Shown piece after piece: positions 7,621-45,026 of a DNA stretch of 64,000 bases. A program made the translations under genes and the position numbers. How positions within the stretch are numbered: the stretch's first letter is position 1; every line of letters begins with the position of its first letter. Under the pieces are notes generated by a model. The model saw only the letters and a list, made by a program, of their open reading frames with translations. It did not search any database and was not told the DNA's origin. The DNA is from Deltaproteobacteria bacterium (lineage in GTDB: Bacteria > Myxococcota_A > Polyangia > Polyangiales > Ga0077539): contig JACRDB010000023.1 in NCBI GenBank assembly GCA_016218725.1, positions 4,479 through 68,478 of the forward strand. The letters are read 5' to 3'.

Positions 7621-9351
7621 TCAGATGCAGCGCAGCGAGGCGGAGCAGTACCCGGTGCAGCAGCTCGACGTGCTGGAGCAGCTCGACCCGGTGCTCACGC
7701 AGGAGCTGGAGCGGCAGGTGCTCCCGGAGCAGCGCCCCGAGCAGCACGACGACGACAGCGAGCAGCTCCCGCCCGTGGAGGTGCAGCTCGTGGTGCGGCA
7801 CAACCCGCTGGAGCACGAGTAGCCCGTGCAGCAGTCCGCGGTGTAGGTGCAGGAGCTCCCGGAGGAGCGGCAGACGGAGTAGAGCGAGCAGATCCCGCCG
7901 GAGCAGCGCCCGGAACAGCACTCCGACGACAGCGAGCAGGACAGCCCCCCGGAGCGGCATGCGGCGCCGCAGACGCCCCCGGAGCAGGTGCCCGAGCAGC
8001 AATCGCTGGTGGTGGTGCAGCTCCCGCCCGCGGCCTCGCACATGGGGGCCCGGCAGGTGCTCGAAGAACAGGTCCCCGAGCAGCACGACGAGGACACCGA
8101 GCAGCTCCCGCTCGTGGAGGTGCAGCTCGATGTGCAGAACCCGCTGGAGCATGCGCCGGTGCAGCACCCCGCCGGGCCCGTGCAGCTCCCGCCCGAGGTC
8201 CTGCACGTGGACGACCGGCAGACGCCCCCGGAGCAGCGCCCCGAGCAGCACTCCGAGGACAGCGAGCAGGCGTCCCCGTCCGCGCTGCAGGTGCCGGCGC
8301 GGCACAGGCCCCCGGAGCAGGTGAGCCCCGCGCAGCAGTCCGTGGAGGCCGAGCAGGTGCTGCTCGCGGGGCGGCACGTCCCGCAGGAGCCCGCCACGCA
8401 CACCAGCCCCGTACAGCACTCCGCCGCGGTGCTGCAGGTGGCGCCGCTCATGCGGCACGTTGGCGTCGTGGCGCAGCGGCCCGCCTGGCACGAGAGCCCG
8501 TCACAGCACGGCGTCTCCGTCGGGCAGGCGCTCCCCGCGGAGAGGCACGTCGGCGGCGTCATGCAGCGGCCCGTCATGCATGCGAGCCCCGCGCAGCAGT
8601 CCGCGGGCCCCGCGCACGCCACCCCGGCCCCGCCGCAGGCGGGCATGCAGCGCCCCGCGACGCACATCGCCCCGCCGCAGCAGTCCCGGTTCTCCACGCA
8701 GCCGGTCCCCGCCGCCGCGCAGGTGCAGCGCCCGGCGTTGCACAACAGTCCCCCGCAGCAGTCGTTGTGCCCCGTGCAGGTGCCGTTGGCCTCGTTGCAG
8801 CACACCACCCCCGGCGTCCCGATGCTCCGGCACGAGTCCGCCCGGCAGCACTGCCCGAGCGACGTGCAGGGCTGCGCCAGGTTGCGGCACATCGGCGCCG
8901 CCATGCACATCCCGTCCGCGCACGTCAGCCCCCCGAGGCACATCCCCCCGGCGCAGCACATCCTCCCGGGCGTCCCGCAGGGCGGGGCCGTGTCCACCGG
9001 CGCAGCCGTGTCCTCCGGCGGCACCCCCGTGTCCGTGGGAGGCATCCCCGTGTCCTCCGGCGGCACCCCCGTGTCCGTGGGAGGCATCCCCGTGTCCTCC
9101 GTGCCCGTCTCCCCGGTGGTCCCCGTGTCCTCCGTGGAGCCGTCCGTGGACTCATCCATGGCGTCCGTGGGCATGGGTCCACCCCCGCCGCCAACGCCCC
9201 CCCGGGCGCTGCACGCCCCGAGAACCACCAGAAGAATCAACCCCGACCAGGAAAAGTGAACACTGTTCACGGAATACCACCTCGTCGCACTTGGATGCCA
9301 CCGGCCCACCGCGGGTCGCGGGGTACTAGCACACAAGGTGGGATGTTTCAC
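7621..9351 (-). CDS. Cys-rich lipoprotein: ~16 tandem six-Cys modules (C-x6-C-x5-CC-x3/4-C-x4-C)
   Basis: Longest ORF is 576 aa. The probable true start is the GTG at 9270 (AGGTGG 6 nt upstream), giving MNSVHFSWSGLILLVVLGAC (lipobox). An acidic P/T/D linker follows, then back-to-back Cys modules. See findings. Confidence 0.75.
   Translation of the reverse strand: MKHPTLCASTPRPAVGRWHPSATRWYSVNSVHFSWSGLILLVVLGACSARGGVGGGGGPMPTDAMDESTDGSTEDTGTTGETGTEDTGMPPTDTGVPPEDTGMPPTDTGVPPEDTAAPVDTAPPCGTPGRMCCAGGMCLGGLTCADGMCMAAPMCRNLAQPCTSLGQCCRADSCRSIGTPGVVCCNEANGTCTGHNDCCGGLLCNAGRCTCAAAGTGCVENRDCCGGAMCVAGRCMPACGGAGVACAGPADCCAGLACMTGRCMTPPTCLSAGSACPTETPCCDGLSCQAGRCATTPTCRMSGATCSTAAECCTGLVCVAGSCGTCRPASSTCSASTDCCAGLTCSGGLCRAGTCSADGDACSLSSECCSGRCSGGVCRSSTCRTSGGSCTGPAGCCTGACSSGFCTSSCTSTSGSCSVSSSCCSGTCSSSTCRAPMCEAAGGSCTTTSDCCSGTCSGGVCGAACRSGGLSCSLSSECCSGRCSGGICSLYSVCRSSGSSCTYTADCCTGYSCSSGLCRTTSCTSTGGSCSLSSSCCSGRCSGSTCRSSSCVSTGSSCSSTSSCCTGYCSASLRCI
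9008..9101. repeat. Perfect 42-bp tandem duplication (2.2 copies) inside the linker-coding part of the Cys-rich lipoprotein gene
   Basis: 9008-9049 and 9050-9091 are identical (gtgtcctccggcggcacccccgtgtccgtgggaggcatcccc). They encode the repeated DTGMPPTDTGVPPE. Confidence 0.9.
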
Positions 9352-15476: not shown

Positions 15477-15741
15477 GGGGTCACCTGTTGAATCGCGCGA
15501 GAGTCCCCTCACAGCTCGACATGCCTGGCGGCGGGACGGAACGCGAGAGCGCGTGTGGAAGGCCCTCCACGACACTTTCGATTAACGCCTATGGGGGCCG
15601 GGGGGTGAGGTCGCGATCGGCGACCTTGGTTATCGGCAGACCCTCCGTTACTTCGCGAAGACATTTTTCGGCATGCTCCTGAACACGGACGGCCATACAG
15701 ACACCATGAGCTTATGGTGTCGAGCACAGGGAGGCCCGGTG

Positions 15742-17751
15742 ATGTCGGTAGTCGTCTCGTCCCGGTGGTGGGTGCCGTTCGCTTTGAGCTTCGCGCTCGC
15801 GGGTTGCGGTGGGTCCGTGACCGTCGGGCCGCCGCCGGACGCCGCGGAGGTAGGGCCAGACCTCGGGGTGACGGACGCCGGTAGCCCAGGGGAGGTCCCC
15901 GCCATGGACGCGCCGCCGGAGGAGGAGGCACCGCTGCCGGGGCGCCAGTGTCAGCGCGCCTCGGATTGCCCTCGGGGCTCCGGGAGCGTCCTGTGCGAGC
16001 TGGGCTACTGCGTACTGCTGAACAACGGGGAGTTCCGGCTGTGCGAGACCGCCAGCGCCTACGTCCGGGTGACGGACAACCCTGCCCACTGCGGCCGCTG
16101 CGGCAACGCCTGCGGGCCCCTGGAGTACTGCTCCGGTCGCGCCTGCGTCCCGTGCCCCGCGGGGAGCGGGCGGTGCGAGGTGAGCGGATTCCGCTGCGGG
16201 GTCAACCTCCGCACGGACCCGAGCAACTGCGGCACCTGCGCGCGCCGCTGCGGCCCGGAGGAGCAGTGCGCGGGTGGCGTGTGCGCGGCGTGTCCCGCGG
16301 GCTTCGGGCGGTGCCGCTCGGGGACGTGCATGTTTGACCTCCAGCGGGACCGTAGAAACTGCGGCGCCTGCGATCGAGAGTGCCGCGAGGGTGAGGGCTG
16401 CGTCGCCGGTGTCTGCGGCCCCTGCCCCGCAGGGACCGCGCTCTGCGGGACCGGGAACTGCCAGGACCTCCAGACAAGTCCCACGCACTGCGGCCGCTGC
16501 TGGAACGCCTGCGCCGACGGCTCGCCATGCGTGGGAGGGGTGTGCCAGGCCTGCCCCGCGGGCTCCGGGCGCTGCGGTGGGACCACCTGCCGCGACCTGT
16601 CGGCGGACCCGGACCACTGCGGGAGCTGCGAGACCCGCTGCGATCGCCTCCGCACCGCGCGCGTCCTGGGGATCGCCTGCGAGCGGGGGCGCTGCGTGGC
16701 GACCGCCTGCGCGCCGGGCACAGCGTCCTGCGGGGGCTCGCCGTGCGACACGGCGCTCGCGGTCAGCGAGGCCCACTGCGGCGCCTGCGGCCGGGCCTGC
16801 GGGCGGGACCAGCGGTGCGTGCTCGGGGTGTGCACAACCCTGCCCATCCGCCAGCGCTCGCCCATCTCGGCCACGTCGGTGACGTCCCGGCGGCCGACCT
16901 TCTGGTGGTTCCTCTCGCCCGGGGTCACCGGCGCCCGGGTGCAGCTCTGCGCCGCGCGGGACTGCGCCGTCGTCGAGGCTACCTGGGACGCCGTCGGGGA
17001 CCACCTGCGGGCGCCCACGGAGCTCACCGAGGGGAGGCATTTCTGGCGCCTCTTCGGGCGGCGGGGAGAGGCCGTGGACGCGACCCCGGGGCTCACCTGG
17101 GAGTTCGAGGTCCCGCCCACGCCGCAGGGCATCCGCGGCTTCGGCGGGCCCGACGCCGTCGGAGACGTGAACGGCGACGGCCTGGGCGACCTCGTGACCA
17201 GGGAGGGGATCTCCTACGGCACCCCCACGGGCTTCGTGCCACCGCCGAGGGCGCGCTTCGTGCCGCCGTCGTCGTGGACAAGCTACAGCGCGACCTGGCG
17301 CGTGAGCGCCACGGGCGACCTCGACGGCGATGGCCTGGGCGACTACGCCCACTGGCTCTGGGAGGTGTTCGGGGCGCCGGATGTCCACCTACGGAGGTCC
17401 GCCGGGCTGGTGCTCTCCACCGCGGAGCCCACGGCCCTCCTCTGGGAATTGACGCCCCAATCAGCGTGGGCATGGGGGGATGTCCGCGGTGAGGGGCGTA
17501 CGCAGTTCTTCACCTTGCGCCCCGACGTCCCCGGGCCCTCGTCCCTGGTGACCTCCAGCTGGTCGCCTTCCCTCACTATGACGACCACACCCTACCCGGA
17601 CTGCGGGTTCTTCTCGGCGGACCTTCGCTTCGAGGCGGCCGACTACGACGGCGACGGCTACGACGACCTGCGCGCGCGCTACGGTGGCTCCGCGAGTAGC
17701 ACCCTGCGCGGAGGCCCGATGGGCCTCGGGCCCCAGGTGTGCGCCCCGTAG
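15742..17751 (+). CDS. Lipoprotein with DxxHCGxCGxxC-type Cys repeats, an Ig-like module and FG-GAP repeats
   Basis: ATG at 15742 preceded by GGGAGG; signal MSVVVSSRWWVPFALSFALAGC. About 8 repeats such as TDPSNCGTCARRCGPEEQCAGGVCAAC, then FG-GAP motifs GDVNGDGLGDLV, GDLDGDGLGDYA and ADYDGDGYDDL. Confidence 0.75.
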   Translation: MSVVVSSRWWVPFALSFALAGCGGSVTVGPPPDAAEVGPDLGVTDAGSPGEVPAMDAPPEEEAPLPGRQCQRASDCPRGSGSVLCELGYCVLLNNGEFRLCETASAYVRVTDNPAHCGRCGNACGPLEYCSGRACVPCPAGSGRCEVSGFRCGVNLRTDPSNCGTCARRCGPEEQCAGGVCAACPAGFGRCRSGTCMFDLQRDRRNCGACDRECREGEGCVAGVCGPCPAGTALCGTGNCQDLQTSPTHCGRCWNACADGSPCVGGVCQACPAGSGRCGGTTCRDLSADPDHCGSCETRCDRLRTARVLGIACERGRCVATACAPGTASCGGSPCDTALAVSEAHCGACGRACGRDQRCVLGVCTTLPIRQRSPISATSVTSRRPTFWWFLSPGVTGARVQLCAARDCAVVEATWDAVGDHLRAPTELTEGRHFWRLFGRRGEAVDATPGLTWEFEVPPTPQGIRGFGGPDAVGDVNGDGLGDLVTREGISYGTPTGFVPPPRARFVPPSSWTSYSATWRVSATGDLDGDGLGDYAHWLWEVFGAPDVHLRRSAGLVLSTAEPTALLWELTPQSAWAWGDVRGEGRTQFFTLRPDVPGPSSLVTSSWSPSLTMTTTPYPDCGFFSADLRFEAADYDGDGYDDLRARYGGSASSTLRGGPMGLGPQVCAP

Positions 17752-32476: not shown

Positions 32477-34921
32477 TCACAGCGCCGGACGGAAGCGCAC
32501 GCCGGTGAAGGACCCCGGGGAGCAGGCGCTGCCGCCGCATGCCCCGATGCCGTCGGTGCCCGCGGCGTTCTCCAGGCCCGCGGTGCGGCTCAGCGCGCCG
32601 GACATGAGCGCGTACTGGAACTCCACCACGTTGGTGCCCTCGTGGAGGATGGCCTCGAAGGTCATGTCGCCGGTGCGGGTGCTGTAGTTCCTGGTGCTCT
32701 GCCACTCGACCACCCAGCGCCGCGACGGCGCCGACCCCACCAAAGCCACGCAGAGCCCGACGCCGTTGGTGAGCAGGTCCCCCCAGTGGACGGCCACCAC
32801 GGAGTTCGGTGTCACGGGGCTCGGGAGGGTCCCGCTGAGGGAGGCGTTGGGCATCCCGTCGAGCCCCAGCCAGCCGTTGGAGCAGAGGTTCACCGAGGCG
32901 CCCGCGGCGATGCGCTCTCCCCAGAAGTGAAACTCGAAGGGCAGCGGCGTGGTGGCGAAGCTGTCGTCCACCAGGGGCAGGTAGGTCAGGCGCCCGGGCG
33001 CGGCGCAGGCGTCCACGAAGGCCGATGGGGCGGTCTCCGCCACGTAGCGCCGGAGGGCCACGGTGACGCAGCTCCCAGCGACGCAGGTGGCGCCCGCCCC
33101 GCATGCGCGGCCGCAGCCGCTGCAGTGCGCCGGGTGCGAGCCCACGTCCACGCAGCCGCCATCACACACCGTCTGCCCCGGAGGACACACCCGGAAGGAC
33201 GGCAGCGTGGTGGCCGGGCACCACCCGAGGGTCTCGTCGGAGCCGCCGAACTGGCTGGCTCCCTCGTGGTGGAAGTACCACCGCCCCTGCGACGGCGACA
33301 CCGCGATGGAGCACATGTCCGCCAGGTTCGTGAAGGTCCCGAGCACCGTCACGGTCCCCTCGGGCACCCGCGCCCTGACGACGCTCGTGGCGTCCCTCAC
33401 GTACACCACCGAGGTCGCCCCCGCAGAGAACTCCGCGACCCCCCAGAAGGCCCAGTTCTCACACCCCTGATGCGGCGGGATGGCCATCGCCCCGAGGGAC
33501 GTCACCAGCCCCGTGGTGGTGTCCACCGCCCAGGCCGCGCTCCCATCGAGCAGCACCAGGCGCCCGTAGCCCGCGAACACCCCCGCCCGCCCGTAGCTCA
33601 ACATCACCGCCTGCGACAGGGTCACCGACCGGGAGGTCATCGCCCCGCTGCGCCCGTCCAGCTCCAGAAGATGCGTCACGCTCCCCCCCGTGGAGCCCAC
33701 CGGGTCCGTGGCGCTCGTCCCGAGGCTGTACACCTTGCCCGACTGCAGGTCGCTCACCAGCCCGTCCACCTGCCGCCCAAGGGACATCGCCCCCCCCAGA
33801 GGCTCCAGGTCAAAGCGCGCCGTCACCAGGTCCCCCGTGTAGAACACCGACGTGTCGCTCACCGCGATCCCACCTCGGTCATCCCCGGTGGAGCCAACGT
33901 GGTCAATGGTCCTACATCCGCCTACACCCAGGGAGCTCACCTGGAAGTCCATGGGGGCGCTGGGCGCCACGCAGGAGCCCGCGGCGCAGACCTGGCCCGG
34001 GGTGCATGCGCGCCCGCAGGCGCCGCAGTTGGCCAGGTCCCCGAGGGTATTGACGCACACGGCGCCGCAGAGGGTCTCCGTGGGCGCGCAGGTGCGCGCG
34101 CATGCGCCCATGCGGCAGGCCTGACCCACGGGGCACGCCCGGCCGCAGGCGCCGCAGTGGAGGTCCGAGGTGAGGCGCACCTCGCAGCCGTTGGTGGCGA
34201 CCCCGTCGCAGTTCCCGAAGCCCACGCTGCACGTCAGGCCGCAGACCCCCGACGCGCACACGGGCATGGCCTCGGGCCCCGTGAGGCACACCGTGTCGCA
34301 CCCTCCGCAGTTGAGGGGGTCGCTGGAGACGTCCAGGCAGGAGCCGCCGCAGACCCGCAGGGGGCTCTCGCAGGTGCCCTCGCAGCGACCGCGCACGCAG
34401 CCCATCCCGGCCGGGCATGCGCGCCCACACATCCCGCAGTGCAGCGGGTCCGTGCGGGCGTCCACGCAGCGCCCGCCGCAGTCCACCTGCCCCGCCAGGC
34501 ACGACGACACGCAGCCCCCGGAGACACAGGCCTCGGTCACCGAGCACGCCTGGCCGCAGCGCCCGCAGTGCGAGCGGTCCGACTGCAGGTCCCGGCACCC
34601 ATCGGCGCAGGGGGCGCTCCCAGCGGGGCAGGTCCCCGCGTCGGGGGTGTCCTCGGGCAGGGGGCCCGTGTCCGGCGCGTCCTCCGGGGCGTTGGTGTCC
34701 GGCGAGGGGGCCTCCGGCGGGGCGTCCCCCGGGGCACCGTCCGTGCCGTCCGCGGCGCCGTCCCTGGCGGGCGCGGCGTCGTTGGTGGCGTCCTCGTCCG
34801 CCGCGCCGTCGGCGACGTCGACGAAGGGGAACAGCGATGAGTGCTGGCGGGCGCAGCCGAACACCACGAACAGGGCGACGACAAGGAAGGGTGCGGCGCC
34901 GGGGTACATACCTCGGGTCAT
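32477..34921 (-). CDS. Large secreted protein: N-terminal acidic linker, DxxHCGxCGxxC Cys repeats, and a C-terminal non-repetitive region (~550 aa)
   Basis: Start at Met61 of ORF 32477..35101 (MTRGMYPGAAPFLVVALFVVFGC). About 7 repeats such as SDRSHCGRCGQACSVTEACVSGGC and TDPLHCGMCGRACPAGMGCVRGRC. Confidence 0.75.
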   Translation of the reverse strand: MTRGMYPGAAPFLVVALFVVFGCARQHSSLFPFVDVADGAADEDATNDAAPARDGAADGTDGAPGDAPPEAPSPDTNAPEDAPDTGPLPEDTPDAGTCPAGSAPCADGCRDLQSDRSHCGRCGQACSVTEACVSGGCVSSCLAGQVDCGGRCVDARTDPLHCGMCGRACPAGMGCVRGRCEGTCESPLRVCGGSCLDVSSDPLNCGGCDTVCLTGPEAMPVCASGVCGLTCSVGFGNCDGVATNGCEVRLTSDLHCGACGRACPVGQACRMGACARTCAPTETLCGAVCVNTLGDLANCGACGRACTPGQVCAAGSCVAPSAPMDFQVSSLGVGGCRTIDHVGSTGDDRGGIAVSDTSVFYTGDLVTARFDLEPLGGAMSLGRQVDGLVSDLQSGKVYSLGTSATDPVGSTGGSVTHLLELDGRSGAMTSRSVTLSQAVMLSYGRAGVFAGYGRLVLLDGSAAWAVDTTTGLVTSLGAMAIPPHQGCENWAFWGVAEFSAGATSVVYVRDATSVVRARVPEGTVTVLGTFTNLADMCSIAVSPSQGRWYFHHEGASQFGGSDETLGWCPATTLPSFRVCPPGQTVCDGGCVDVGSHPAHCSGCGRACGAGATCVAGSCVTVALRRYVAETAPSAFVDACAAPGRLTYLPLVDDSFATTPLPFEFHFWGERIAAGASVNLCSNGWLGLDGMPNASLSGTLPSPVTPNSVVAVHWGDLLTNGVGLCVALVGSAPSRRWVVEWQSTRNYSTRTGDMTFEAILHEGTNVVEFQYALMSGALSRTAGLENAAGTDGIGACGGSACSPGSFTGVRFRPAL

Positions 34922-34970
34922 TGCCGAGAACGTAGCACCCGCGCGGGTGTACCGTACCCCCTCGGAGGGG

Positions 34971-36275
34971 ATGTCTTCGATGCAACGGAACTCCACCCTG
35001 GCCGCGCTCCTGGCGACGGCCCTCGCGGCGCGGGAGGTCGCGCCGCAGGTGCCTCCCCCGGGCCCGGACCCCGACGGCGACGACGACCCCGTCGCGGACA
35101 CCGGCTCCGGCGCCCTTCCCCCCGGCGGGCGCTTCGAGCGTGTGGGGCGCGCGCCGCAGGCCCTGCACCGGGTCTGTGACCTTACGGTGTTCCAGGGCGC
35201 CCTCTACGGGGCCCACGCCAACCGCCCCTTGAGCTCCGACGGGGCCACGATCACCCGCTACGACCCCGCCGCCACGCCGCCCTGCACCGTGGCCTTCGAC
35301 TGGAACCGCCCGGGGCCGCCCCGGGGCGGCGGCGGCGCGGGCCAGGGCTTCCTGCGCGTGCACGCCATGGGGGGCAGGCTCTTTGTCCCCGACGCGGACC
35401 CTCCCTACAACGGTTTTGGGATCTCCGAGCACGGCACCGAGGGCTTTGTCTTTGTCTCCGACACCGCAGGGCACTTTGCCCCGGCCCGAGGGCCCAGGCT
35501 CCGCCCTCCCGGGGTTCCCGACGCGGTGAACCGCCCCGGCGCGGCGGTGCTCCCGCGGGCCTACCACGTCCTTGACGCCATCCGTTACCGCGGTCGCTGG
35601 CTGGCCTCGACGGGCAGCGTGCCGCCGAGGGAGAGGGCCTGGTATGGGCCCTCTCCGGGGGCGCTCCACGTGGCGGGGGCGGACCTCTCGCGCTGGACCT
35701 ACGAGGTGGATTATCCCCACCCGTGGCGCCCTGGCGTGTGGCGCCTGGGCTTTCTTGTACGCTTCCGAGGGAGGCTCTACGCGGGCCTCCAGGACTACGA
35801 CGGCCGCGAGCCCAACGACTACGTGTGGCTGGCGCCCGCCCCCGGGGCCGGCGCCCTCTCCCGCGGGGACGTGCACCCGGTGAGGGTGACCGGCACGGCC
35901 CTTACGCTGCGCTGGTGAGCCGACCAGGGGAGGCTCTACTGGCTTGCCTGGAACCGCTCTGGGGGGACGGTGCTCCGGGTCACCGACGACGGGGACACCT
36001 GGCGCGCGATCGTGTTTCCTCCGGAGGCCGGCGCCCCTACGGACATCACCCGCTGGCGCGGCGCCAGGGTGGTGCTCACGGAGCGAGGGCTCTACCGGCT
36101 CGACGGGGACACCCCGGCGCGCGTGGGAGACGTCCCCCTGGACCCCCAGGGGCGCAGCCCCTTCGTCTTCAGCGACGTGTTCTGCGCGGCGCCGCTGGCG
36201 GTCTTCCGCGGGGACCTCTACGCCGGGGGCCAGCGCGACGGCTCCCTCTGGCGCTTCGCGCCCGCCACGCCCTGA
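34971..36275 (+). pseudogene. Secreted beta-propeller-like protein interrupted by an in-frame TGA at 35916-35918
   Basis: ORFs 34971..35918 and 35919..36275 are in the same frame. A blade-like motif ([RF]xGxL[YF]) recurs on both sides of the stop (...TLRW*ADQGRLYWLAWN...). Signal-like N-terminus MSSMQRNSTLAALLATALAA. Confidence 0.55.
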
Positions 36276-36750
36276 CATCGCGGTGGTCTACGTTTAGGCG
36301 TAAGGGATGCGCGTCCGCCTCGGGACCACGGCAGACGCGCAGCTCTCGAAGCGTGGCCTCAGTGCAGAGCCAGAATAGCTGCAACTTCACGAGGTTGCGC
36401 CCGCTGCCGTGGGCCGTCGGGCAGGGACCTGGGCCACACTTCGGGGACACCGCGGGACGCGACGAAATGCGCTTGACAGCGGCAGGACCCAGCGGGACCC
36501 TCCTGGGGGCGCAGATGGGATCGTGTGCACACACGCATCGGTCAGCGGTCGAGGGGGCTCAGCACCCTCAAGGGCCTGCGGTCGCCGGAGTGCGCTTGGG
36601 CGTTCATGGTGCGCGCGCCCTGGTGGCGGGGCTACGCGACGACCTCCTGCTGCGAGAGCGAGGCCGGAAGGTGCGCTGGGCGCCGCGCGAGTTCAAGGCC
36701 GACGAGCGCGGGGGCATCGAGGTCGAGCACAGTCGGGCGGCCGGTTCGGG

Positions 36751-36823
36751 GCGGCCTAACACGCGAATTCCGTGGTTATGCAGCCGGGGTCGGCGGCCCA
36801 ACACGCGGATTACGTGGTTATGC
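36751..36823. repeat. Two 31-bp direct repeats (3 mismatches) spaced 42 bp apart, each holding a CACG-N7-CGTG inverted repeat
   Basis: gcggcctaacacgcgaattccgtggttatgc (36751-36781) and gcggcccaacacgcggattacgtggttatgc (36793-36823), located 70-140 nt upstream of the first island gene. Confidence 0.8.
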
Positions 36824-36893
36824 GGCGGTCGAACACGATGTTAGCCCGACCGAAGGGATATACTGGAACAATGGCATCGCAAGGAGATCGCTG

Positions 36894-38096
36894 GTGAGCC
36901 TGATTGAACTCTGGAAAAAGTCGCCGGACCAGCTCACGGTCAAGCATCTTCATCAGATCATCGCCTTCGCAGGTGAAGGCAAGCTCCGGGACGGAAGTGC
37001 CACATCGTCGGAGTTTCGGTCATTTCTTCTACAGGTGCCGTCGTCGATGCTAGGGCGCTTCGTCGATGAGTGTCTGAATGCTAGTTTTCCAGATTCGGGG
37101 TTCGCGCTCCAAGATGTGATCAATGAGGTGGGGCGCCGTCTGGGATTCGTTGTGACGAATGGGCTCTACCAGGGACGCCAGGGACAGGTTGGTTCCGACG
37201 GCCTCTGGGTGCTACCAACGCAGCATGCTGTGGTGGTCGAGGCGAAAACGACCGATGCATATCGCATAGATACCGCCAGACTTGCGGGATACCGCAAGCA
37301 GTTGACGAGTGCAGGGACGATCAAGGAGGAGGCATCATCTGTACTTCTTGTTGTTGGACGTAAAGACACTGGTGATCTTGAGGCGCAGATTCGAGGCTCG
37401 CGTTACGCGTGGGAGATTCGCCTCATAAGTGCAGATGCACTTCTCCGGCTGATGAAACTCAAAGAGACCCTCGACGATCTAGCGACCATCGGCCGGATTT
37501 GCGAGATCCTGATTCCCCGCGAGTACACGCGACTGGACGACATCGTGGATCTAGTCTTCTCAACCGCCGAGGAGGTGCAGCAGGAGGACACCGAGGAGGA
37601 GGCAGAGAAGCCGGAAGACGAAGTTGGTCTAGTTGAACAGGTCCGGTCAGCCAGGCCAGCTAAGCCCATGGCGTTCCACGAGGCGTGCATCTCCCTCGTA
37701 TCTAGAGCGAAGGCCATCCCGCTCGTTCGTCAGTCTCGCTCCACATTCGCGGCTCCGGACGGCACCGTCCGGGCGGTATGCGCTGTCTCGAAGGTACATC
37801 AGTCTCAAGGACGCGAGTCCTACTGGTTTGCGTTTCATCCTCAGCAAGATGCCTATCTGGAAGGTGCAGCAAACGGTCTTCTTGTACTGGGCTGCGGAGG
37901 TCCCGAGATGGTTCTGGCGATCCCGCATCGAACAGTAAGGACGTGGCTAGGAGATCTCTGGACGACCGAACGCGACAACGGCCGGCGGTACTGGCATATT
38001 CGACTTCACGCGGCTGGCGGAAAACTGATGATGGACCGCAGCGACGGCAAATCGCGAGTGGACCTTAGCCCGTTCCTCGTCAAGCCCGCGGGCTAA
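36894..38096 (+). CDS. PD-(D/E)xK (restriction-endonuclease-like) protein with acidic linker and unassigned C-terminal domain
   Basis: GTG at 36894 with AAGGAG 7 nt upstream. Nuclease-core-like motif ...QVGSDGLWVLPTQHAVVVEAKTTDAY... (D...ExK). Acidic stretch EEVQQEDTEEEAEKPEDE. C-terminal ...GRESYWFAFHPQQ...RRYWHIRL.... Confidence 0.65.
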   Translation: MSLIELWKKSPDQLTVKHLHQIIAFAGEGKLRDGSATSSEFRSFLLQVPSSMLGRFVDECLNASFPDSGFALQDVINEVGRRLGFVVTNGLYQGRQGQVGSDGLWVLPTQHAVVVEAKTTDAYRIDTARLAGYRKQLTSAGTIKEEASSVLLVVGRKDTGDLEAQIRGSRYAWEIRLISADALLRLMKLKETLDDLATIGRICEILIPREYTRLDDIVDLVFSTAEEVQQEDTEEEAEKPEDEVGLVEQVRSARPAKPMAFHEACISLVSRAKAIPLVRQSRSTFAAPDGTVRAVCAVSKVHQSQGRESYWFAFHPQQDAYLEGAANGLLVLGCGGPEMVLAIPHRTVRTWLGDLWTTERDNGRRYWHIRLHAAGGKLMMDRSDGKSRVDLSPFLVKPAG

Positions 38097-38106
38097 CAAG
38101 CCCCTG

Positions 38107-38134
38107 CTGCCGACGCCGCTTCGCGGCGCGGCAG
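38107..38134 (+). terminator. GC-rich hairpin (12-bp stem with 1 bulge, TTC loop) after the PD-(D/E)xK gene; no T-tract
   Basis: ctgccgacgccgc-ttc-gcggcgcggcag, 11 nt after the stop codon. Confidence 0.4.
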
Positions 38135-38199
38135 AGCGGCCATCCGTTGGGCAGCCTCGAACTGCGACGATTAGGTCGTTTGGCCGAGGCCGAACAGGA

Positions 38200-39210
38200 A
38201 TGATCCAGGAAATGAGCGACTCGACTGCCAAGACTCGTGCGATCGTTACAACACGCCTCAACTCGCCTCAGCGTCAGAGGACGATCGCCGCAGTAGATGC
38301 AGACGTCCGTGTCGATCCGGGACTGATGGCTGAACTCAAGAATGAAGGGACACTCGATGACCTGATCCTTCTCGCCGAAAATGACTCCGATAACAGTGTT
38401 CGCCGCGAAGCGCTGCGCCTTCTGAGTTCCGTGGAGATCGGTGCGGACAGGTGTGATCGCCTCATCACGCTCTTGCGCCGAGAAGCGCACAATCGAGTCA
38501 GCAATGTTCTGGGCGAGGCCGTTGCAGCGGTATGGGGACAGGATCGAACTGGTGTTTTCAGGCGCCGTGATCGAAACCTCTTGCTGGGGGAGCTGCTGTC
38601 TCTCGACGTTCCCGAACATGCCCGCGTGACTGCTATTCGTGAGCTGGCGAGGTATGGCGAAATCGACGCTCTGGAACGCGTCGTGATGCTGCCAGTCAGC
38701 AGTGCGGAGGTACGTGATGCCGTGCTGGCTCTCACGACAGCGATCATCGGCCGAAAGCGCCGCGTGGATAGACTTCGTTCGTCGTCGTTCGAGCACCTCG
38801 TTCTCTACATACTCTTGAAGGAGCACCCGACGCTCTGCGGAGACGTGCGCGGACGAAGGAGGGATCGTGGAATCGACATCGTTCTCTATGAACCGCCTCA
38901 CGTTCAGTTGGGGCAATACCCTTCGCGGGGTATTCGGTTCGTGGCGCAATGCAAGAGGTGGAAGCACACGCGCGTACCTGCCTCCGAGGTATCGGAGTTC
39001 ATGGCGATCGCGAAAAGCCGCGGGGCTGGGGCGGTTTTCGTTACGACCTCCGACTTTACGGACGAGACATACGACATGGAACGTGGACGCGATTCTGAGG
39101 GCGCTCTGTTGTCACCCAGGTTGTCCGTGCCGGAACTGACGCTGATTGCTAGGAGCCGACTTCGGGACTTGCTCGACCGGCACGGGCTCGCTGAGACATA
39201 TGAACTCTAG
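38200..39210 (+). CDS. HEAT-repeat / Mrr-type restriction endonuclease fusion protein
   Basis: N-terminal HEAT-like repeats (ENDSDNSVRREALRLL; EHARVTAIRELARYGEIDAL). C-terminal Mrr_cat pattern: FEHLVLYILLKEH...RRDRGIDIVLY...IRFVAQCKRWK...GAGAVFVTTSDFT. Confidence 0.75.
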   Translation: MIQEMSDSTAKTRAIVTTRLNSPQRQRTIAAVDADVRVDPGLMAELKNEGTLDDLILLAENDSDNSVRREALRLLSSVEIGADRCDRLITLLRREAHNRVSNVLGEAVAAVWGQDRTGVFRRRDRNLLLGELLSLDVPEHARVTAIRELARYGEIDALERVVMLPVSSAEVRDAVLALTTAIIGRKRRVDRLRSSSFEHLVLYILLKEHPTLCGDVRGRRRDRGIDIVLYEPPHVQLGQYPSRGIRFVAQCKRWKHTRVPASEVSEFMAIAKSRGAGAVFVTTSDFTDETYDMERGRDSEGALLSPRLSVPELTLIARSRLRDLLDRHGLAETYEL

Positions 39211-39240
39211 GACGATGCCCGGGTTCGCGGCAGAGCTCAG

Positions 39241-39273
39241 CATGCCCAACAAGCCGATGGTGCTGACCGCTCC
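39241..39273. repeat. 33-bp direct repeat, copy 1 (upstream flank of the Rpn-family gene)
   Basis: catgcccaacaagccgatggtgctgaccgctcc versus cgtgcccgacaagccgatggtgccgaccgcccc at 40212-40244 (4 mismatches). Confidence 0.8.
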
Positions 39274-39304
39274 TGATGGTTCCCACGAGGTGTAGAAAGT
39301 TCTC

Positions 39305-40210
39305 ATGCACGCCGTTTTCGCCGACCCCAAGACCGACTTCGTGTTCAAGCGCATCTTCGGTGCCGAGACCCGCAAATCTCTCCTGATCGCGCTGCTCAAC
39401 CACCTACTGGAGTTCGAGGGCGACCAGCGGATTCTCGATGTGCAGCACCTTACGGGAGAGCAGCACGTCGATGTGGCCGAACTCAAGCTCTCGATCGTCG
39501 ATGTGAAGTGCACCGATGCGACTGGCCGCCGCTTCGTGGTCGAGATGCAGGTGCTCAAAGTCGAGGGTTTCGAGAAGCGGGTCGTCTACAACGCCAGCAA
39601 GGCGTATGTGATGCAACTCCGCAACGCCGAGGAGTACCCGACGCTGTGTGACGTGTTCGGCGTCACGATCTGCAACTTCAACCTGTGGGCGGACAAGGAC
39701 ACTCAAGGGCACTTTAGGGTGCCCATGCTGAGTCGTTGGCGCATGCAGGAACAGCACAGCGGCGCCCAGGGGCTGCCACAAGTGCAGTATGCCTTCCTCG
39801 AACTGCCCAAGTACGAAGCGGGTGATGCACCGAAAACACTCGTCGAGAAGTGGGCGTATTTCTTTCGCGAGGCCAAGAACCTGAACGTAGTCCCTTCGTC
39901 CTTGTCGGATGCGCCCTTCCGCGAGGCGCTGGAGGTCTCACGGACAGCAGGCTTCTCCGCCGACGAGTGGGAGGCATACGAACGCGCCAAGATGGCCGAG
40001 CAGGACGCACGAGGCGCGCTCGCGATCGAGCGGCAGGAGGGTAAGCTGGAAGGCAAGCGTGAAGCATTGCTGCTTCTTCTCGCGCATCGAGGCATCAATC
40101 TCATGGAGGAGGACCGCGCGAGGATCTCAGCGTGTACGGATAGTGCCATTTTTAACCGCTGGTTCCAGCGGGCACTAACGGCTACGTCGGCCGCGGAGGT
40201 GTTCGCGTGA
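39305..40210 (+). mobile_element. Rpn-family recombination-promoting nuclease / putative transposase (PD-(D/E)XK)
   Basis: MHAVFADPKTDFVFKRIFG...LSIVDVKCTDATGRRFVVEMQVLK... is the nuclease core. The C-terminal EGKLEGKREALLLLLAHRGINL tail is DUF4351-like. Confidence 0.85.
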
Positions 40211-40362: not shown

Positions 40363-41931
40363 TCACCCACAGACACCCGCCGTGCAGCGCCCGGTGCAGC
40401 AGTCGATCCCCGCCGAGCAGCTCCGCCCGGCCGCCTGGCACTGGCACCGCCCGGTGATGCACAGCGTGGTGCCGCAGCACTCCCGGCTGCTGGCGCAGGG
40501 GCTCCCCGGCGCCGTGCAGCACCGCTTGGCCCCGGAAAGAGTGCTGCACACCAGCCCCCCGCAGCACTGGCTGTCGTTCAGGCACGTGGTGGTGGCCGTG
40601 GGGCCCATGCAGGTGGTGGTCGGCGTCGCGCACACCCCCGATCGACACACCAGCCCCGGGCAGCAGTCCGCGTCGACGCAGGTCTCAGCGGCGCGGCGGC
40701 AGACGCAGTAGCGGTTGGTGGTGTGGCAGGTCATCTGGCCGCAGCAGCCTGCGCCCATGCAGGGGCTGCCGGGGCCGATGCAGCACTGCCGGACCGTGGG
40801 CGCCGGCGCGCACTGCAGCCCCGCGCAGCAGTCGCTCGCGGCGGCGCAGGTGCGGTCCCCGGCCATGCGACAGGTGACCATCGGCGCGCAGACGCCCGCG
40901 CGGCACACGTTGCCCATACAACAATCGGTGTCGTCCGCGCAGCTCCTCCCGGCGGGCTGGCAGACGCACACGCCGCCCGTGCAGGTGAGCCTCCCGCAGC
41001 ACTCCAGCGAGGACGCGCAGGCGGTCCCCTGACGGTGGCAGCACCGCAGGAGCGTGGGGGTGGGGCGGCAGTCGAAGTCCCCGCAGCAGTCCCGGGCGGT
41101 GGTGCATACGGCCCCCGGGGCGCGGCAGGCGGTGCAGGTGCCCGAGGCGCACCCCAGGGCCCCGGTGCAGGTGTTGCCGTCGCAGCACGGCTGGGCCATG
41201 GCTCCGCAGGTGCGGGGCGGGGCCTGGCAGCGCCCGGCGGTGCACACCAGCGAGCCCGTGCAGGTGCTCCCCATGCAGCAGGGCTGCCCCGAGGCCCCAC
41301 AGGAGACGGGCGTCTGACACCGGGACTGCACGCACTCCAGGCCCCGCTGGCAGGCGCTCCCGGTGCAGCACGGCTGGGCCATGGCCCCGCAGGCCCGAGG
41401 GCGCGTGCACGCGTCGTTCTTGCACTCCAGGCCGGCGCCGCAGGTGTTCCCCGGGCAGCATGCCTGGTTCTCCGCGCCGCAGGGGGCGCAGGTGCCCCCG
41501 TCGCAGCGGTAGCCCGCCAGGCACGTGTTGCCCGCGCAGCAGCGCTGGTCGCGGCCCCCACAGTCGTTGGCGCGCTCGCAGACGCCGTCCTCGCAGACGC
41601 TCCCGCGGCAGCAGTCCCCGGCGGAGGCGCACACCCCGCCCACCTCGACGCAGCAGCGCCCGCCGTTGCAGCCGAAGTTGGAGCAGCAGTCCAGGGGGTC
41701 CGCGCACTCGGCCCCGCCCGCGCCGCAACAGACGCCCTGCTCGCACTCCAGGCCCCGGTTGCACGCCAGGCCCCCGCAGCACGGGGCGTGGTTGGCCCCG
41801 CAGCGGGGGGCCGCCTCGCTCCCGGGGGTGGTCCCGTCGGTCCGGGGCGCCACGTCGGGGATGTCCGGCACCTGCCCGAGCGAGCACGCCCCGCAGAGCA
41901 CGGCCAGGAGGAGCACACACCGCAGAAGCAT
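40363..41931 (-). CDS. Second Cys-rich lipoprotein (522 aa) built from two kinds of tandem Cys modules
   Basis: True start at 41931 (MLLRCVLLLAVLCGAC, lipobox). The upstream 354 codons of ORF 40363..42993 overlap the aldehyde dehydrogenase gene in another frame. About 20 modules, e.g. CGAMAQPCCTGSACQRGLECVQSRC and CQPAGRSCADDTDCCMGNVCRAGVC. Confidence 0.75.
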   Translation of the reverse strand: MLLRCVLLLAVLCGACSLGQVPDIPDVAPRTDGTTPGSEAAPRCGANHAPCCGGLACNRGLECEQGVCCGAGGAECADPLDCCSNFGCNGGRCCVEVGGVCASAGDCCRGSVCEDGVCERANDCGGRDQRCCAGNTCLAGYRCDGGTCAPCGAENQACCPGNTCGAGLECKNDACTRPRACGAMAQPCCTGSACQRGLECVQSRCQTPVSCGASGQPCCMGSTCTGSLVCTAGRCQAPPRTCGAMAQPCCDGNTCTGALGCASGTCTACRAPGAVCTTARDCCGDFDCRPTPTLLRCCHRQGTACASSLECCGRLTCTGGVCVCQPAGRSCADDTDCCMGNVCRAGVCAPMVTCRMAGDRTCAAASDCCAGLQCAPAPTVRQCCIGPGSPCMGAGCCGQMTCHTTNRYCVCRRAAETCVDADCCPGLVCRSGVCATPTTTCMGPTATTTCLNDSQCCGGLVCSTLSGAKRCCTAPGSPCASSRECCGTTLCITGRCQCQAAGRSCSAGIDCCTGRCTAGVCG

Positions 41932-41972: not shown

Positions 41973-43457
41973 TCAAGCCGTCGGGACCCAGACGCACCGC
42001 GCCTGGGTGTAGAGCTCCAGCGCGTGCATCCCCTGCTCCCGCCCCCAGCCCGACTGGCGGAAGCCCCCAAAGGGCGCCGCGGCGTCGAAGCCGTTCCACA
42101 TGTTCACCCACACGGTGCCCGCCTGGAGCCTCCGGGCCACCCGGTGGGCGCGGGCCACGTCCCGGGTGAACACCCCCGCCGCCAGGCCGTAGGTGGTGCC
42201 GTTCGCGATACGAACAGCCTCGTCCTCGTCGGTGAAGGTCAGCACCGCCAGCACCGGCCCGAAGACCTCCTCCTGGGCCAGCGCCATCGCGGGCTTCACG
42301 TCCTCGAAGATCGTGGGCTGGAGGAAGAAGCCCCGGGCCTTGTCCCCTTCGGTGTCGCGCTGGCCGCCCGTCACGAGCCTCGCGCCCTCCGCCGTGGCCC
42401 GCGCGATGTGCCCGAGGACCGCGTTCAGCTGCCGCTCGGAAACCAAAGCCCCGAGCTGCGTGCGGACGTTGAGAGGGTCCCCCACGGTCATCCTCCGCGC
42501 CTTCTCCGCGAGCTTCGCCACCAGGGCGTCCTTGACGCTCGCGTGGCACAGGAGCCGTGAGCTCGCCGAGCACACCTCGCCCTTGTTCGAGAATATCCCC
42601 CCCTGCGCCCACCGCGCCGCCTGGTCCAGGTCCGCGTCGGGGAACACCAGCATCGGGCTCTTGCCGCCGAGCTCCAGCGAGAGCTTCTTCAGGTTCGTCT
42701 CGGCGCTGGCCACCAGCAGCCTCCGGGCCGTCCTGGGGCTCCCCGTGAACGCCACCTTGTCCACGTCCGGGTGCCGGGCCAGGGCCTCCCCCGCCACGTC
42801 CCCGTAGCCCGGGACCACGTTCACCACCCCGTCGGGGATCCCCGCGGCCTTGCACAATTCCCCAAGACACAGCGCCGTCAGGGGCGTGAACTCCGAGGGC
42901 TTCAGCACCACCGTGTTCCCCGCCGCCAGCGCCGGAGCCACCTTCCAGCAGGCCATCAGCAACGGGTAGTTCCAGGGTACGATCTGCCCACACACCCCCA
43001 CCGGCGCCCTCTGGGTGTAGCAGAGCACCTCACCCTCCACGGGGATGGTCTCGCCGTGGAGCTTGGTGGCCCAGCCGGAGAAATACCGGAAGACCTCGCT
43101 ACAACCAGGCAGGTCGCCCTTCTGGGCCTCGCGGAGGGTCTTGCCGTTGTTCAGGCACTCCACCGTGGCCAGCTCGTCCCTGCGCTGGTCCAGGAGCTCG
43201 GCCACGCGCCACAGGAGCCTCTGGCGCTGGGCGGGAGAGGTCTTCCCCCAGGCGCCCTCAAAGGCCCCCCGGGCGGCCTTGACGGCCCGGTCGATGTCCT
43301 CCCCGCGGGCCTCGTGCACGGTGGCCAGGGCGGCGCCGGTGGCCGGGTTGGTGACCGTCAGGAGCCCGCCGGCCTCCGAGGGCGCCCAGGCCCCGTTGAT
43401 CCACAAGGGCACCGGCTCGCGGTACCGGGCCAGGAGCTCTTCCACCAGCGTTCCCAT
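41973..43457 (-). CDS. NAD(P)-dependent aldehyde dehydrogenase
   Basis: ...GVCGQIVPWNYPLLMACWKVAPALAAGNTVVLKPSE..., ELGGKSP and GEVCSASSR (catalytic Cys). Confidence 0.92.
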   Translation of the reverse strand: MGTLVEELLARYREPVPLWINGAWAPSEAGGLLTVTNPATGAALATVHEARGEDIDRAVKAARGAFEGAWGKTSPAQRQRLLWRVAELLDQRRDELATVECLNNGKTLREAQKGDLPGCSEVFRYFSGWATKLHGETIPVEGEVLCYTQRAPVGVCGQIVPWNYPLLMACWKVAPALAAGNTVVLKPSEFTPLTALCLGELCKAAGIPDGVVNVVPGYGDVAGEALARHPDVDKVAFTGSPRTARRLLVASAETNLKKLSLELGGKSPMLVFPDADLDQAARWAQGGIFSNKGEVCSASSRLLCHASVKDALVAKLAEKARRMTVGDPLNVRTQLGALVSERQLNAVLGHIARATAEGARLVTGGQRDTEGDKARGFFLQPTIFEDVKPAMALAQEEVFGPVLAVLTFTDEDEAVRIANGTTYGLAAGVFTRDVARAHRVARRLQAGTVWVNMWNGFDAAAPFGGFRQSGWGREQGMHALELYTQARCVWVPTA

Positions 43458-43595: not shown

Positions 43596-45026
43596 ATGTC
43601 GCACCCGACCTCCGGCGCCCCCCGCGGCGCCCTCACCGCCGCCATGTCTGCGAAGCGCCAGCCTACGGGGCCTCGGGTCCTGAGGGTGGGTGTAGTCCAG
43701 GGTGGGCGCATCACCGACGACCGGATTCTTCGTGAGCGCACGGAGGTGACCGTGGGGTCGTCGGAGCGGGCGACCTTTGTGGTCACGGACCGGGCGCTGC
43801 CCGGGGTGAGCCCGCTGTTTGTCCTTCGGGAAGGGGCGTACGCCCTGGTGGTGACGCCGGAGCTGGAGGGCCGGGTGGTGCTGCCGCTGGGGGTCAAGAC
43901 CCTGGCCGAGTGCCGGGCCGAGGGGCTCCTGCGCCAGGACGACGGTCGGTGGCTCCTGCACCTCTCCGACGGGGCGCGGGGCAAGGTCACCGTCGGGGGC
44001 GTGGGCTTCCTGTTCCAGTTCGTGGCCGCGCCGCCGGTGATGCCCAGGCCGCAGCTCCCGAGCGCCCTCAAGCGCTCCGTGGGGAGCGCCCTGGACTGGC
44101 GCTACAATGCGTGTCTGTCAGGCTTCTTCGCGCTGGCGGTGGGCTCCCTCGGGTGGGTGGAGTACGGCTACGACCCGCTGGTGGGCGAGATTGACCCCTA
44201 CGCCGTGAGGCTCGTGGCCGACGCCTCCATCGCGCCGCCGGACAACCCCGAGCCCGTGGTGACGCCCCGCGAGGCCCTGCGCACGCCGGACCCGACGGCG
44301 CCCCCGAGCACCCACGACCCGCGGCCGACCCCCACGCCCCGCGAGCCCAGCGGCCCCCCGAGGCCCCCGTCCGCGCGAGACGTGCAGGACGCCCGGGACG
44401 CCGCGGACCGCATCGCGGCGACGGCGATCCGGGAGATGAACGCGCAGTTCGACCCGCTCACGTCCGCGGCGGGCGTCGGCGGCGCGAGGGACCAGCTCGC
44501 CCGCAACGCCCTGATGGACGGCACCGCGGAGGACCTCAGGAACACCACGGGCATCACCCGGGACCCCTCGGCGGTGGCCTTCCGGTCGCCGACCACCACG
44601 CCGGTGAACGGCCAGAACCTGTTCCGGACGAACACCACGACCCCGACGCAGGACTTCCGCCCGACGGACCCGACGCGGGAGAACGGCGCCACGCGCCCGC
44701 CCACCATCGGGGTGCCCCGGGAGCCCACGGTGACCACCTGTGACGGGTCCTACACGGCCTCCGTGGCCCGCACCATCCGAGGGCAGCTCGGGGGCTTCCG
44801 GGCCTGCTACGAGCGGGCCTCGCGGAACAACCCCACGCTGGCCGGGCGCGTCACCCTGCACTTCTCGGTCAACGCCTCCGGGCGCGCCACGGGCGTGAGC
44901 GCCCACGGGCTCTCCTCCGAGGTGGACGAGTGCGTCAGCGGCGCCGTGCGCCGGATCGTGTTCCCGGTGTCCACCTGCGAGGACGCCGAGTTCGAGTTCC
45001 CGGTGTCCTTTGACCACGGGCAGTGA
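43596..45026 (+). CDS. AgmX/PglI C-terminal-domain protein (TonB-C-like), Pro-rich middle
   Basis: C-terminal ...IRGQLGGFRACYERASRNNPTLAGRVTLHFSVNASGRATGV...CVSGAVRRIVFP... is typical of this myxobacterial domain (from memory). One TM helix (ACLSGFFALAVGSLGWV). Confidence 0.7.
   Translation: MSHPTSGAPRGALTAAMSAKRQPTGPRVLRVGVVQGGRITDDRILRERTEVTVGSSERATFVVTDRALPGVSPLFVLREGAYALVVTPELEGRVVLPLGVKTLAECRAEGLLRQDDGRWLLHLSDGARGKVTVGGVGFLFQFVAAPPVMPRPQLPSALKRSVGSALDWRYNACLSGFFALAVGSLGWVEYGYDPLVGEIDPYAVRLVADASIAPPDNPEPVVTPREALRTPDPTAPPSTHDPRPTPTPREPSGPPRPPSARDVQDARDAADRIAATAIREMNAQFDPLTSAAGVGGARDQLARNALMDGTAEDLRNTTGITRDPSAVAFRSPTTTPVNGQNLFRTNTTTPTQDFRPTDPTRENGATRPPTIGVPREPTVTTCDGSYTASVARTIRGQLGGFRACYERASRNNPTLAGRVTLHFSVNASGRATGVSAHGLSSEVDECVSGAVRRIVFPVSTCEDAEFEFPVSFDHGQ

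Follow-up and report, generated by a model that had tools for sequence, protein, structure and literature searches.

In a window of 64,000 nucleotides (the whole stretch of DNA that was analysed) of contig JACRDB010000023.1, from a Deltaproteobacteria bacterium of the Polyangiales, the minus-strand gene 40363..41931, here named P1, encodes a cysteine-rich protein that we read as an anchored chain of 17 small disulfide modules acting as a stable binding scaffold, with a probability of about 0.55 for this combined reading. The anatomy of P1 is held with high confidence, and its function as a binding scaffold, argued by analogy with related proteins, is tentative. P1 belongs, by sequence comparison, to a collinear orthologous family of Polyangiales and Sandaracinaceae lipoproteins of 33–57% identity that occurs in myxobacteria from soil and sea and has no family name, and its two kinds of modules appear to be one and the same 25-residue unit differing only in the place of one Cys. 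A related minus-strand gene of the same window, 7621..9351, is named P2.

The original prediction quoted the P1 protein without stating its strand; translating 40363-41931 returned that same protein of 522 residues plus its stop, and the strand is minus. The start was fixed at the ATG by aligning the N-termini of the orthologs. The guanine-cytosine (GC) content of P1 by codon position is 0.59/0.73/0.95, and at third codon positions (GC3) it is 0.945 in the neighbouring aldehyde dehydrogenase gene, in a window of about 72% GC overall. An open reading frame (ORF) of 601 residues lies on the plus strand over the same DNA with a GC3 of about 0.63, and because this compares with 95% in the minus frame, the latter is taken as coding and the plus-strand reading of 40363-41931 is ruled out as an Ala/Arg/Gly-rich shadow frame. 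An 876-residue ORF starting from GTG 42993 was also discarded; it is an artefact, extended upstream so far that it runs into the aldehyde dehydrogenase gene.

P1 contains 105 Cys, which make up 20% of its residues, besides only three His. Three of these Cys fall within the signal peptide MLLRCVLLLAVLCGAC, and the 102 that follow it parse without remainder into 17 modules of six Cys each, with lengths of 24–31 residues. Six modules (1 and 4–8) have the type 1 spacing C-x6-CC-x4-C-x5-C-x4-C, and eleven (2, 3, and 9–17) have the type 2 spacing C-x6-C-x5-CC-x4-C-x4-C, which is that of knottins. The linkers between successive modules measure, in order, 0, 0, 5, 2, 5, 5, 6, 2, 0, 1, 5, 0, 1, 6, 0, and 1 residues, and the five junctions of zero length (68/69, 93/94, 297/298, 383/384, and 471/472) account for the CC pairs that the original prediction had described as bridging some units. 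The six example modules quoted there were likewise found in place (type 1 at residues 151-175, 181-205, and 211-235; type 2 at 324-348, 411-434, and 498-521), and so were both spacings, while the estimate of about 20 modules comes down to 17. At a higher level of organization, the modules build triplets of about 85 residues, each made of three type 2 modules. The first of these has a long last loop and meets the second at a CC junction, and a single residue separates the second from the third. The three triplets A, B, and C at the C-terminal end of P1 share 47–48% mutual identity, and the same arrangement recurs in modules 2-4 of P2 (39%), at the C-terminus of the M23 peptidase P0033 (37%), and, with a type 1 module in first place, in modules 1-3 of P1 itself (39%).

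The homology of the modules was assessed by comparing identity at non-Cys positions with that of within-module shuffles. Within P1, type 1 modules share 35% identity vs. 11% after shuffling (z = 13.8, with 0 of 5000 shuffles as high), and type 2 modules share 26% vs. 10% (z = 7.9). Because these identities lie far above those of the shuffles, the modules are taken as homologous, and the possibility raised beforehand that they might be no more alike than random Cys/Gly-rich sequence does not hold, either within P1 or between P1 and P2, where type 2 modules share 23% identity vs. 11% shuffled (z = 7.0). Both types are 25 residues long and have Cys 1, 8, 14, 20, and 25 in common, while the sixth Cys occupies position 9 of type 1 modules and position 15 of type 2 modules. 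A MAFFT alignment of the type 1/2/2 triplet with the type 2 triplets places these five Cys in register without gaps; in that register, the two types share 18% identity over the 18 other positions vs. 11.5% shuffled (z = 5.2), with G17, L18, and G23 common to both. Type 1 and type 2 are therefore, as far as the sequences tell, one 25-residue module that differs only in the place of one Cys. Two other ways of relating the types were considered. A reading in which type 1 is type 2 shifted in register and completed by the last Cys of the preceding module was ruled out because linkers vary (2–6 residues) while the gaps within modules are constant. Aligning the types CC on CC gives a nearly equal score over its one four-residue loop (0.29 vs. 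0.32), and we prefer the same-register alignment, since five Cys, G17, L18, and G23 stay matched in it without any insertion or deletion.

The way in which Cys are lost in the family gives an indication of how they pair. We aligned P1 with 30 full-length orthologs, which makes 510 module-by-sequence cells, and all six Cys are kept in 430 of them. In 66 of the 80 deviant cells, exactly Cys1 and the movable sixth Cys are missing together, with other patterns in the remaining 14; these counts are of sequences, not of independent events, and imply at least nine events at the module level. Of the 2040 cells for the four core Cys (8, 14, 20, and 25), only 13 lack the Cys. The joint loss was seen in type 2 as the pattern xCCxCC in modules 3, 11, 12, 14, 15, 16, and 17, and in type 1 as the pattern xCxCCC in modules 4 and 7, with Cys1 and Cys9 of module 7 lost jointly in 20 orthologs; modules 3, 7, 11, and 17 retain only the four core Cys in many orthologs. 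Since paired loss is typical of disulfide partners, the pattern indicates a Cys1-Cys15 bond in type 2, equivalent to the I-IV bond of knottins, and a Cys1-Cys9 bond in type 1, and it therefore favors disulfides over metal binding. The bonds of the core would then be 8-20 and 14-25 (II-V and III-VI in type 2), by elimination and by analogy with knottins. If these core bonds hold, type 1 would not be knottable, because its third bond merely staples a seven-residue loop.

The full-length AlphaFold2 model of P1, made from a 20-sequence alignment, has a mean predicted local distance difference test (pLDDT) score of 79.8 and a predicted template modelling (pTM) score of 0.29, and modules 4-8 modelled alone reach a pLDDT of 83.6 with a beta-hairpin at the end of each module; as modelled, P1 would be a row of confidently predicted beads, each ending in a beta-hairpin, without a fixed overall shape. 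Comparison of the full model with the PDB by Foldseek gave a list topped by Dickkopf domains (5o57 first) that also includes the knottin entries 2gx1, 6cei, 1d1h, and 1mct_I, with target-normalised template modelling (TM) scores of 0.69–0.76 over 25–29 residues and all with E of 2.5 or higher; the root-mean-square deviation is 0.9–1.2 Å for the toxins 2gx1, 6cei, and 1d1h, and 4.0 Å for the squash inhibitor 1mct_I. The type 1 segment gave weaker matches (the double-knot toxin DkTx and conotoxin TVIIA, TM 0.59). The eleven type 2 modules show the C-C-CC-C-C order of six Cys that knottins have within about 25–40 residues, which the six type 1 modules (C-CC-C-C-C) do not. At the sequence level, the P1 profile finds Dkk4, Dkk2, and Dkk1 as its best matches among PDB sequences (E 0.01–0.035), and P1 stays below the Pfam cut-offs of Conotoxin_I2 (PF17557; 16.5 vs. 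27 bits) and Dickkopf_N (PF04706; 16.3 vs. 25 bits), while P2 collects 42.6 bits for Conotoxin_I2 summed over six repeat stretches and 25.0 bits for Dickkopf_N, exactly at the cut-off. No NCBIfam family, curated models of Cys-rich repeats included, matched P1 or P2 at E<=1. As a side observation, a Foldseek search of BFVD matched the P1 model with E of 1e-12 to 1e-7 to Cys-rich "transmembrane" or "EGF-like" proteins of Pithovirus, Cedratvirus, and iridoviruses, with the low TM-scores expected because repeat chains are flexible; giant viruses of amoebae, too, have similar anchored arrays of small disulfide modules.

A word-indexed sequence search with P1 found 47 relatives, about 25 of which are full-length lipoproteins of 540–640 residues with 33–38% identity, all of them unnamed or "hypothetical" and one from a Sandaracinaceae metagenome-assembled genome (MAG). 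Six closer orthologs, with 51–57% identity over residues 3-521, were found by tblastn in Polyangiales/Myxococcota MAGs. In an alignment of 20 proteins collinear with P1, the module Cys are, with few exceptions, invariant or conserved at 90% or more, and the family profile matches P1 in hmmsearch with 401 bits (E=2e-121) as a single domain over profile positions 4-551. The order of module types is fixed throughout the family: 1,2,2,1,1,1,1,1, followed by three type 2 triplets. Among 1.84 billion cluster representatives, a profile search returned 2243 at E<=1e-3, 384 at E<=1e-10, and 43 at E<=1e-30, with the full-length members forming about 11 clusters at 50% identity. Beyond these, the modules are shared by proteins of other architectures, such as an M23 peptidase with a C-terminal type 2 triplet, a protein named by its source as a WD40-like propeller with a C-terminal type 2 array, a type 1 array beside RCC1 repeats, and others with FG-GAP repeats or PSI domains; several of these score at or above the Pfam cut-offs of DUF7107, EB, or Dickkopf_N. 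The closest database protein (P0001, L003 8001-9626, 54% identity) turns into Arg-rich nonsense past about residue 378, and tblastn finds its remainder in another frame, which looks like a frameshift of metagenome assembly or a pseudogene.

Two expectations of the original prediction found no support in this family. It had considered module shuffling likely, and P1 is collinear module by module with about 30 orthologs of 33–57% identity, with nearly invariant Cys; because the module order is fixed and DNA-level repeats are absent, shuffling is unsupported. Indeed, no DNA tandem repeats were found in the module region of either P1 or P2, and the duplications that gave rise to the modules are therefore considered old. 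It had also taken the loops for likely binding surfaces, a role that stays conjectural, and suggested looking for hypervariable loop positions; variability turned out to be spread over all loops (column entropy alike in all of them, 1.6–2.2 bits) without discrete hypervariable sites. Apart from Cys, conservation across the wide family is almost confined to Gly and extends otherwise to a few Leu, Pro, and Asp, and the alignment contains no conserved run of 7–10 columns. Among close orthologs, modules 1-3 are the most conserved, with pairwise identities of 0.65–0.80 at non-Cys, non-Gly positions vs. 0.39–0.62 elsewhere. Insertions and deletions concentrate in loop 2 of module 13, which reads MGAG in P1 (residues 392-395, 40798-40809) and carries 11–34 extra low-complexity, Ala/Asp/Gly/Ser-rich residues in the close orthologs L007, L008, L010, and L012 (e.g., TADAGVSDAGPRDASMDAAADAGTALSNP); this loop thus tolerates large insertions.

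P2 is similar to P1 at its signal peptide and lipobox end and, like P1, has a type 1 module first. BLASTP between P1 and P2 gave E=1e-20 at 32% identity, and the P1-family profile matched P2 with E=1.7e-31 and 104 bits, a value that carries a very large composition-bias term; small hidden Markov models (HMMs) made from five or six modules of P1 did not report P2, which we attribute to the composition correction of HMMER. No full-length ortholog of P2 was found, and its best matches are proteins of about 970 residues with 42–45% identity over about half of P2; in the top one, P0189, a C-terminal type 2 array comes after a long N-terminal region, and one of these proteins is the WD40-like propeller protein mentioned above. 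The earlier idea that P1 and P2 are diversified members of one family therefore stood in part: they share homologous modules, the triplet, and similar ends, and P2 falls outside the orthologous group of P1. On this comparison, the two are members of one module superfamily and not recently diversified paralogs. Some observations concern P2 alone. Its acidic tether contains a perfect 42-bp tandem repeat (9006-9101, 2.3 copies, 100% match) that encodes the TGMPPTDTGVPPED motif and is the sole recent duplication seen in P1 or P2. P2 lies within a same-strand run of the minus strand (6850-10575), between an M48-like lipoprotein gene (9370-10575) and a TauE/SafE family membrane protein gene (6850-7614) that starts 6 nucleotides past the end of P2, and the three may form an operon. 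Type 2 arrays that are closer to P2 than to P1 (E down to 1e-32) are also present at 1016-2146, 5751-7019, and 7539-8000 of L015, labelled "MAG: archaeon isolate DeMMO2_26". The KNOTTIN database paper gives knottins as absent from archaea (PMC5753296), and L015 is a counter-example unless the contig was mis-binned.

As for anchoring, Cys16 of P1, in the lipobox-like LCGAC, aligns with lipobox Cys that are canonical in the orthologs (e.g., ..VVAAC/TKG and ..VLGC/TQG) and is presumed to be the lipidated residue; lipidation and membrane location would follow from this sequence signal. The tether behind it, about 27 residues long, has a high column entropy across orthologs (2.28 bits). We propose that P1, which would carry no enzymatic domain, is exported through Sec, anchored by its lipid, and oxidized in the periplasm in a Dsb-dependent manner, with Cys1 of each module bonding to the movable sixth Cys and with Cys8, 14, 20, and 25 forming a two-disulfide hairpin core. 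The oxidized chain would be a protease-resistant beads-on-a-string stalk of tens of nanometres, held to the membrane by the lipid via the flexible tether, whose conserved membrane-proximal triple module (1-3) would dock to a conserved partner while the more variable distal modules would bind an extracellular or cell-wall polymer weakly at many sites. The distal modules are proposed as binders because related bacteria have the same modules appended to the C-terminus of secreted enzymes.

Several points weigh against this scaffold reading and should be kept in mind. We tested the lipobox with a PROSITE PS51257-style pattern, {DERK}(6)-[LIVMFWSTAG](2)-[LIVMFYSTAGCQ]-[AGS]-C near the N-terminus; P2 and 9 of 10 tested orthologs pass it at the aligned Cys, and P1 (…AVLCGAC) fails because of the Cys at position -3, so that the predicted lipobox is present at the expected place but is imperfect in P1 itself. 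No Foldseek match of P1 in the PDB has an E below 0.5, which we ascribe to the small size of the modules. The mature protein has only four aromatic residues and a near-neutral isoelectric point, unlike typical carbohydrate-binding modules. The earlier description of its loops as chemically diverse relative to those of P2 agrees with the Ser content (5% in P1, 16% in P2). No neighbours, whether the aldehyde dehydrogenase or others, are conserved around P1 across 15 related loci, where shared context was seen only between two marine Sandaracinaceae MAGs with each other, and therefore no operon-based clue to function is available. A scan for sigma-70-like promoters and intrinsic terminators at P1 found none, which is uninformative at such GC since shuffled high-GC sequence yields almost none either. 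Finally, conservation limited to Cys, Gly, and a few Leu, Pro, and Asp across the wider family would fit a passive spacer equally well.

That spacer is the alternative that survives best, although we consider it unlikely: P1 would be a rigid, protease-proof stalk or surface layer, in which length matters and no specific ligand is involved. Besides the conservation of scaffold residues only, such a role agrees with the strictly conserved number and order of modules, with the lack of an evident aromatic or charged patch, and with the low pTM, which suggests no compact functional head. Yet modules 1-3 keep their loop residues best (e.g., ACNRxLECEQGVCC and CCSN[FY]GCN), which suggests a specific contact; the usual reason for appending such modules to enzymes is targeting; and a spacer needs something at its tip, while P1 has nothing past module 17. 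A multi-headed protease inhibitor, each bead blocking a protease so that the array shields the surface of a protease-secreting cell, is very improbable. Myxobacteria are protease-rich predators, and module-sized matches to the squash inhibitor MCTI-A (1mct_I and 1f2s_I; TM 0.72–0.73) and to hirustasin would agree with this idea, but all these fold matches are statistically insignificant, squash inhibitors lack the CC doublet and differ from P1 modules in Cys spacing, and P1 has no conserved reactive-site loop, its loop 1 being as variable as the others. A precursor cut into free knottin peptides against the ion channels of eukaryotic grazers or prey is hardly credible even though spacing and predicted fold resemble those of spider, cone-snail, and scorpion channel toxins and tandem knottins occur naturally, as in DkTx, a Foldseek match, because five junctions without linker and others of 1–2 residues mean that the modules cannot be separated by cleavage, the linkers hold no recurring processing motif, the orthologs are predicted to be lipid-anchored, and the positional orthology of every module points to a function as a single chain. 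An exported, metallothionein-like thiol buffer, whose 102 Cys would bind Cu, Cd, or Zn or absorb oxidants, is just as implausible: it has in its favor the Cys content and the TauE/SafE sulfite-exporter-family gene adjoining P2, against which stand the loss of Cys in specific pairs, unlike cluster ligands, a spacing without the C-x-C and C-x-x-C motifs of metallothioneins (no C-x-C occurs in the list of Cys gaps inside the modules), the scarcity of His, the confidently predicted beta-hairpins, and the oxidising periplasm that exported proteins meet.

The anchored scaffold that we favor resembles, in parts, several known systems. It shares with knottins, the inhibitor cystine knot peptides of spiders, scorpions, cone snails, and plants (Conotoxin_I2, PF17557; Toxin_12, PF07740), the type 2 framework, including an acidic residue before the CC as in the scorpion knottin consensus CX6CX4DCC... 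(PMC3694633), a predicted fold that comes within about 1 Å of 2gx1, 6cei, and 1d1h over 25–29 residues, and a I-IV bond indicated by co-loss. Unlike knottins, which are free secreted peptides, P1 is bacterial, fuses 17 modules into one chain predicted to be lipid-anchored, stays under both of these Pfam cut-offs, and gives no indication of a toxin function; moreover, its six type 1 modules have one Cys moved, which makes the I-IV knot-forming ring impossible. The disulfide-directed beta-hairpin (DDH) is a proposed two-disulfide precursor of knottins. The core Cys8, 14, 20, and 25 of the P1 family resembles it, as do the four-Cys-only modules of many orthologs, with the difference that two-disulfide, three-disulfide, and alternative three-disulfide forms exist side by side within one bacterial protein in the P1 family, whose core connectivity is deduced; the DDH fold is mentioned in PMC3694633. 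The Dickkopf/colipase fold (PF04706) provides the best profile matches to solved structures and the top Foldseek match, and a Polyangiaceae protein from the P2 search is named by NCBI annotation as a Dickkopf N-terminal cysteine-rich domain protein; Dickkopf, however, is a eukaryotic Wnt antagonist with 10 Cys in about 51 residues, and the match spans only half of the profile. Wheat germ agglutinin and hevein offer an example of tandem disulfide-rich domains with a knottin-like core that work as a multivalent binder, and a segment of type 1 modules of P1 matches them weakly; the TM is only 0.16–0.19, and hevein contains 8 Cys together with a triad of aromatic residues for sugar binding, compared with almost no aromatics in P1. 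Closer to home, Stig1-like (PF04885)/FG-GAP lipoproteins of Myxococcota, found in the same genome, resemble P1 in their acidic or Pro-rich tethers and in carrying small disulfide modules in long arrays, but their repeat (CGxCGxxC...) is unrelated, with no cross-match to the P1 profile or module HMMs. Two such Cys-rich lipoproteins, with 60 and 92 bits to Pfam Stig1, lie in the window at 15673-17751 (plus strand, also with FG-GAP repeats) and 32477-35101 (minus strand), and so the 64 kb hold four lipoproteins with Cys-rich repeats, whose modules are of two kinds unrelated to each other.

Table 1. Features of P1, of P2, and of the genes downstream of P1 (coordinates of the window; residue and module numbers of P1)
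Feature	Coordinates	Strand	Basis or content
P1 gene, complete; start ATG 41931	40363..41931	-	translation: 522 codons + stop at 40363-40365
Signal peptide MLLRCVLLLAVLCGAC with lipobox-like LCGAC	41884..41931	-	Cys16 aligned with ortholog lipobox Cys
Tether, residues 17-43, Pro/Asp/Thr/Gly-rich	41803..41883	-	pLDDT <50 for residues 13-39; predicted disordered
Modules 1-3, residues 44-118: types 1, 2, 2 fused head to tail via CC	41578..41802	-	parse; pLDDT 84-91
Modules 4-8, residues 124-266: five type 1, linkers 2-6	41134..41562	-	parse; AlphaFold2 segment model
Triple-module unit A, modules 9-11, residues 269-348	40888..41127	-	parse and triplet alignment
Triple-module unit B, modules 12-14, residues 354-434	40630..40872	-	parse and triplet alignment
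Triple-module unit C, modules 15-17, residues 441-521, then C-terminal Gly522	40369..40611	-	parse and triplet alignment
P2, lipoprotein, 576 residues, 98 Cys	7621..9351	-	one type 1 module, one triplet, 12 more Ser/Thr-rich type 2 modules
Mrr_cat restriction-endonuclease-like gene	38200-39210	+	in low-GC stretch
PD-(D/E)XK "transposase" family gene	39305-40210	+	in low-GC stretch

With regard to the surroundings of P1, the aldehyde dehydrogenase gene (41973-43457) lies upstream on the same strand, with 41 nucleotides from its stop to the ATG of P1. Divergent from this pair, a plus-strand ORF of 476 residues without Pfam match (43596-45026) is rich in Pro/Thr over a long middle part, and two Cys pairs lie in its C-terminal region. 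Directly downstream, 36000-40210 has a GC of 0.60–0.63 vs. about 0.72 and carries, convergent to P1, the PDDEXK_2 transposase-like and Mrr_cat genes; this stretch is probably horizontally acquired DNA.

It is already known that annotation pipelines pick up knottin- or Dickkopf-like repeats in some Myxococcota proteins. Bacterial knottins are entered in the KNOTTIN database as a family without experimental structure (PMC5753296), and in the literature on bacterial knottins or myxobacterial Dickkopf domains we found no study of such proteins. What is new here is the collinear 17-module lipoprotein family, which has no name, together with the unification of its module types and the evolutionary evidence on a dispensable disulfide. 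Knottins are prized as ultra-stable scaffolds for drugs and imaging and are known almost wholly from eukaryotes. For the organism itself, P1 would be one more surface or periplasmic Cys-rich lipoprotein, and its immediate importance is limited thereby. We further advance, as a speculative and rather doubtful proposal, that the family keeps three states of one module in one chain, namely the four-Cys core, the stapled type 1, and the true knottin type 2; if true, this would be a natural record of the gain or loss of a cystine knot by moving one Cys, and an ancient bacterial module pool would be related to the knottin, Dickkopf, and EB-type domains of eukaryotes and giant viruses. For the family, the 25-residue module and the 85-residue triplet are recurrent building blocks that current domain libraries miss in the case of P1, and each chain offers 17 natural variants, position-aligned across dozens of genomes, with and without the knot-forming disulfide, with which the question of which disulfides a knottin-like hairpin needs becomes directly testable.

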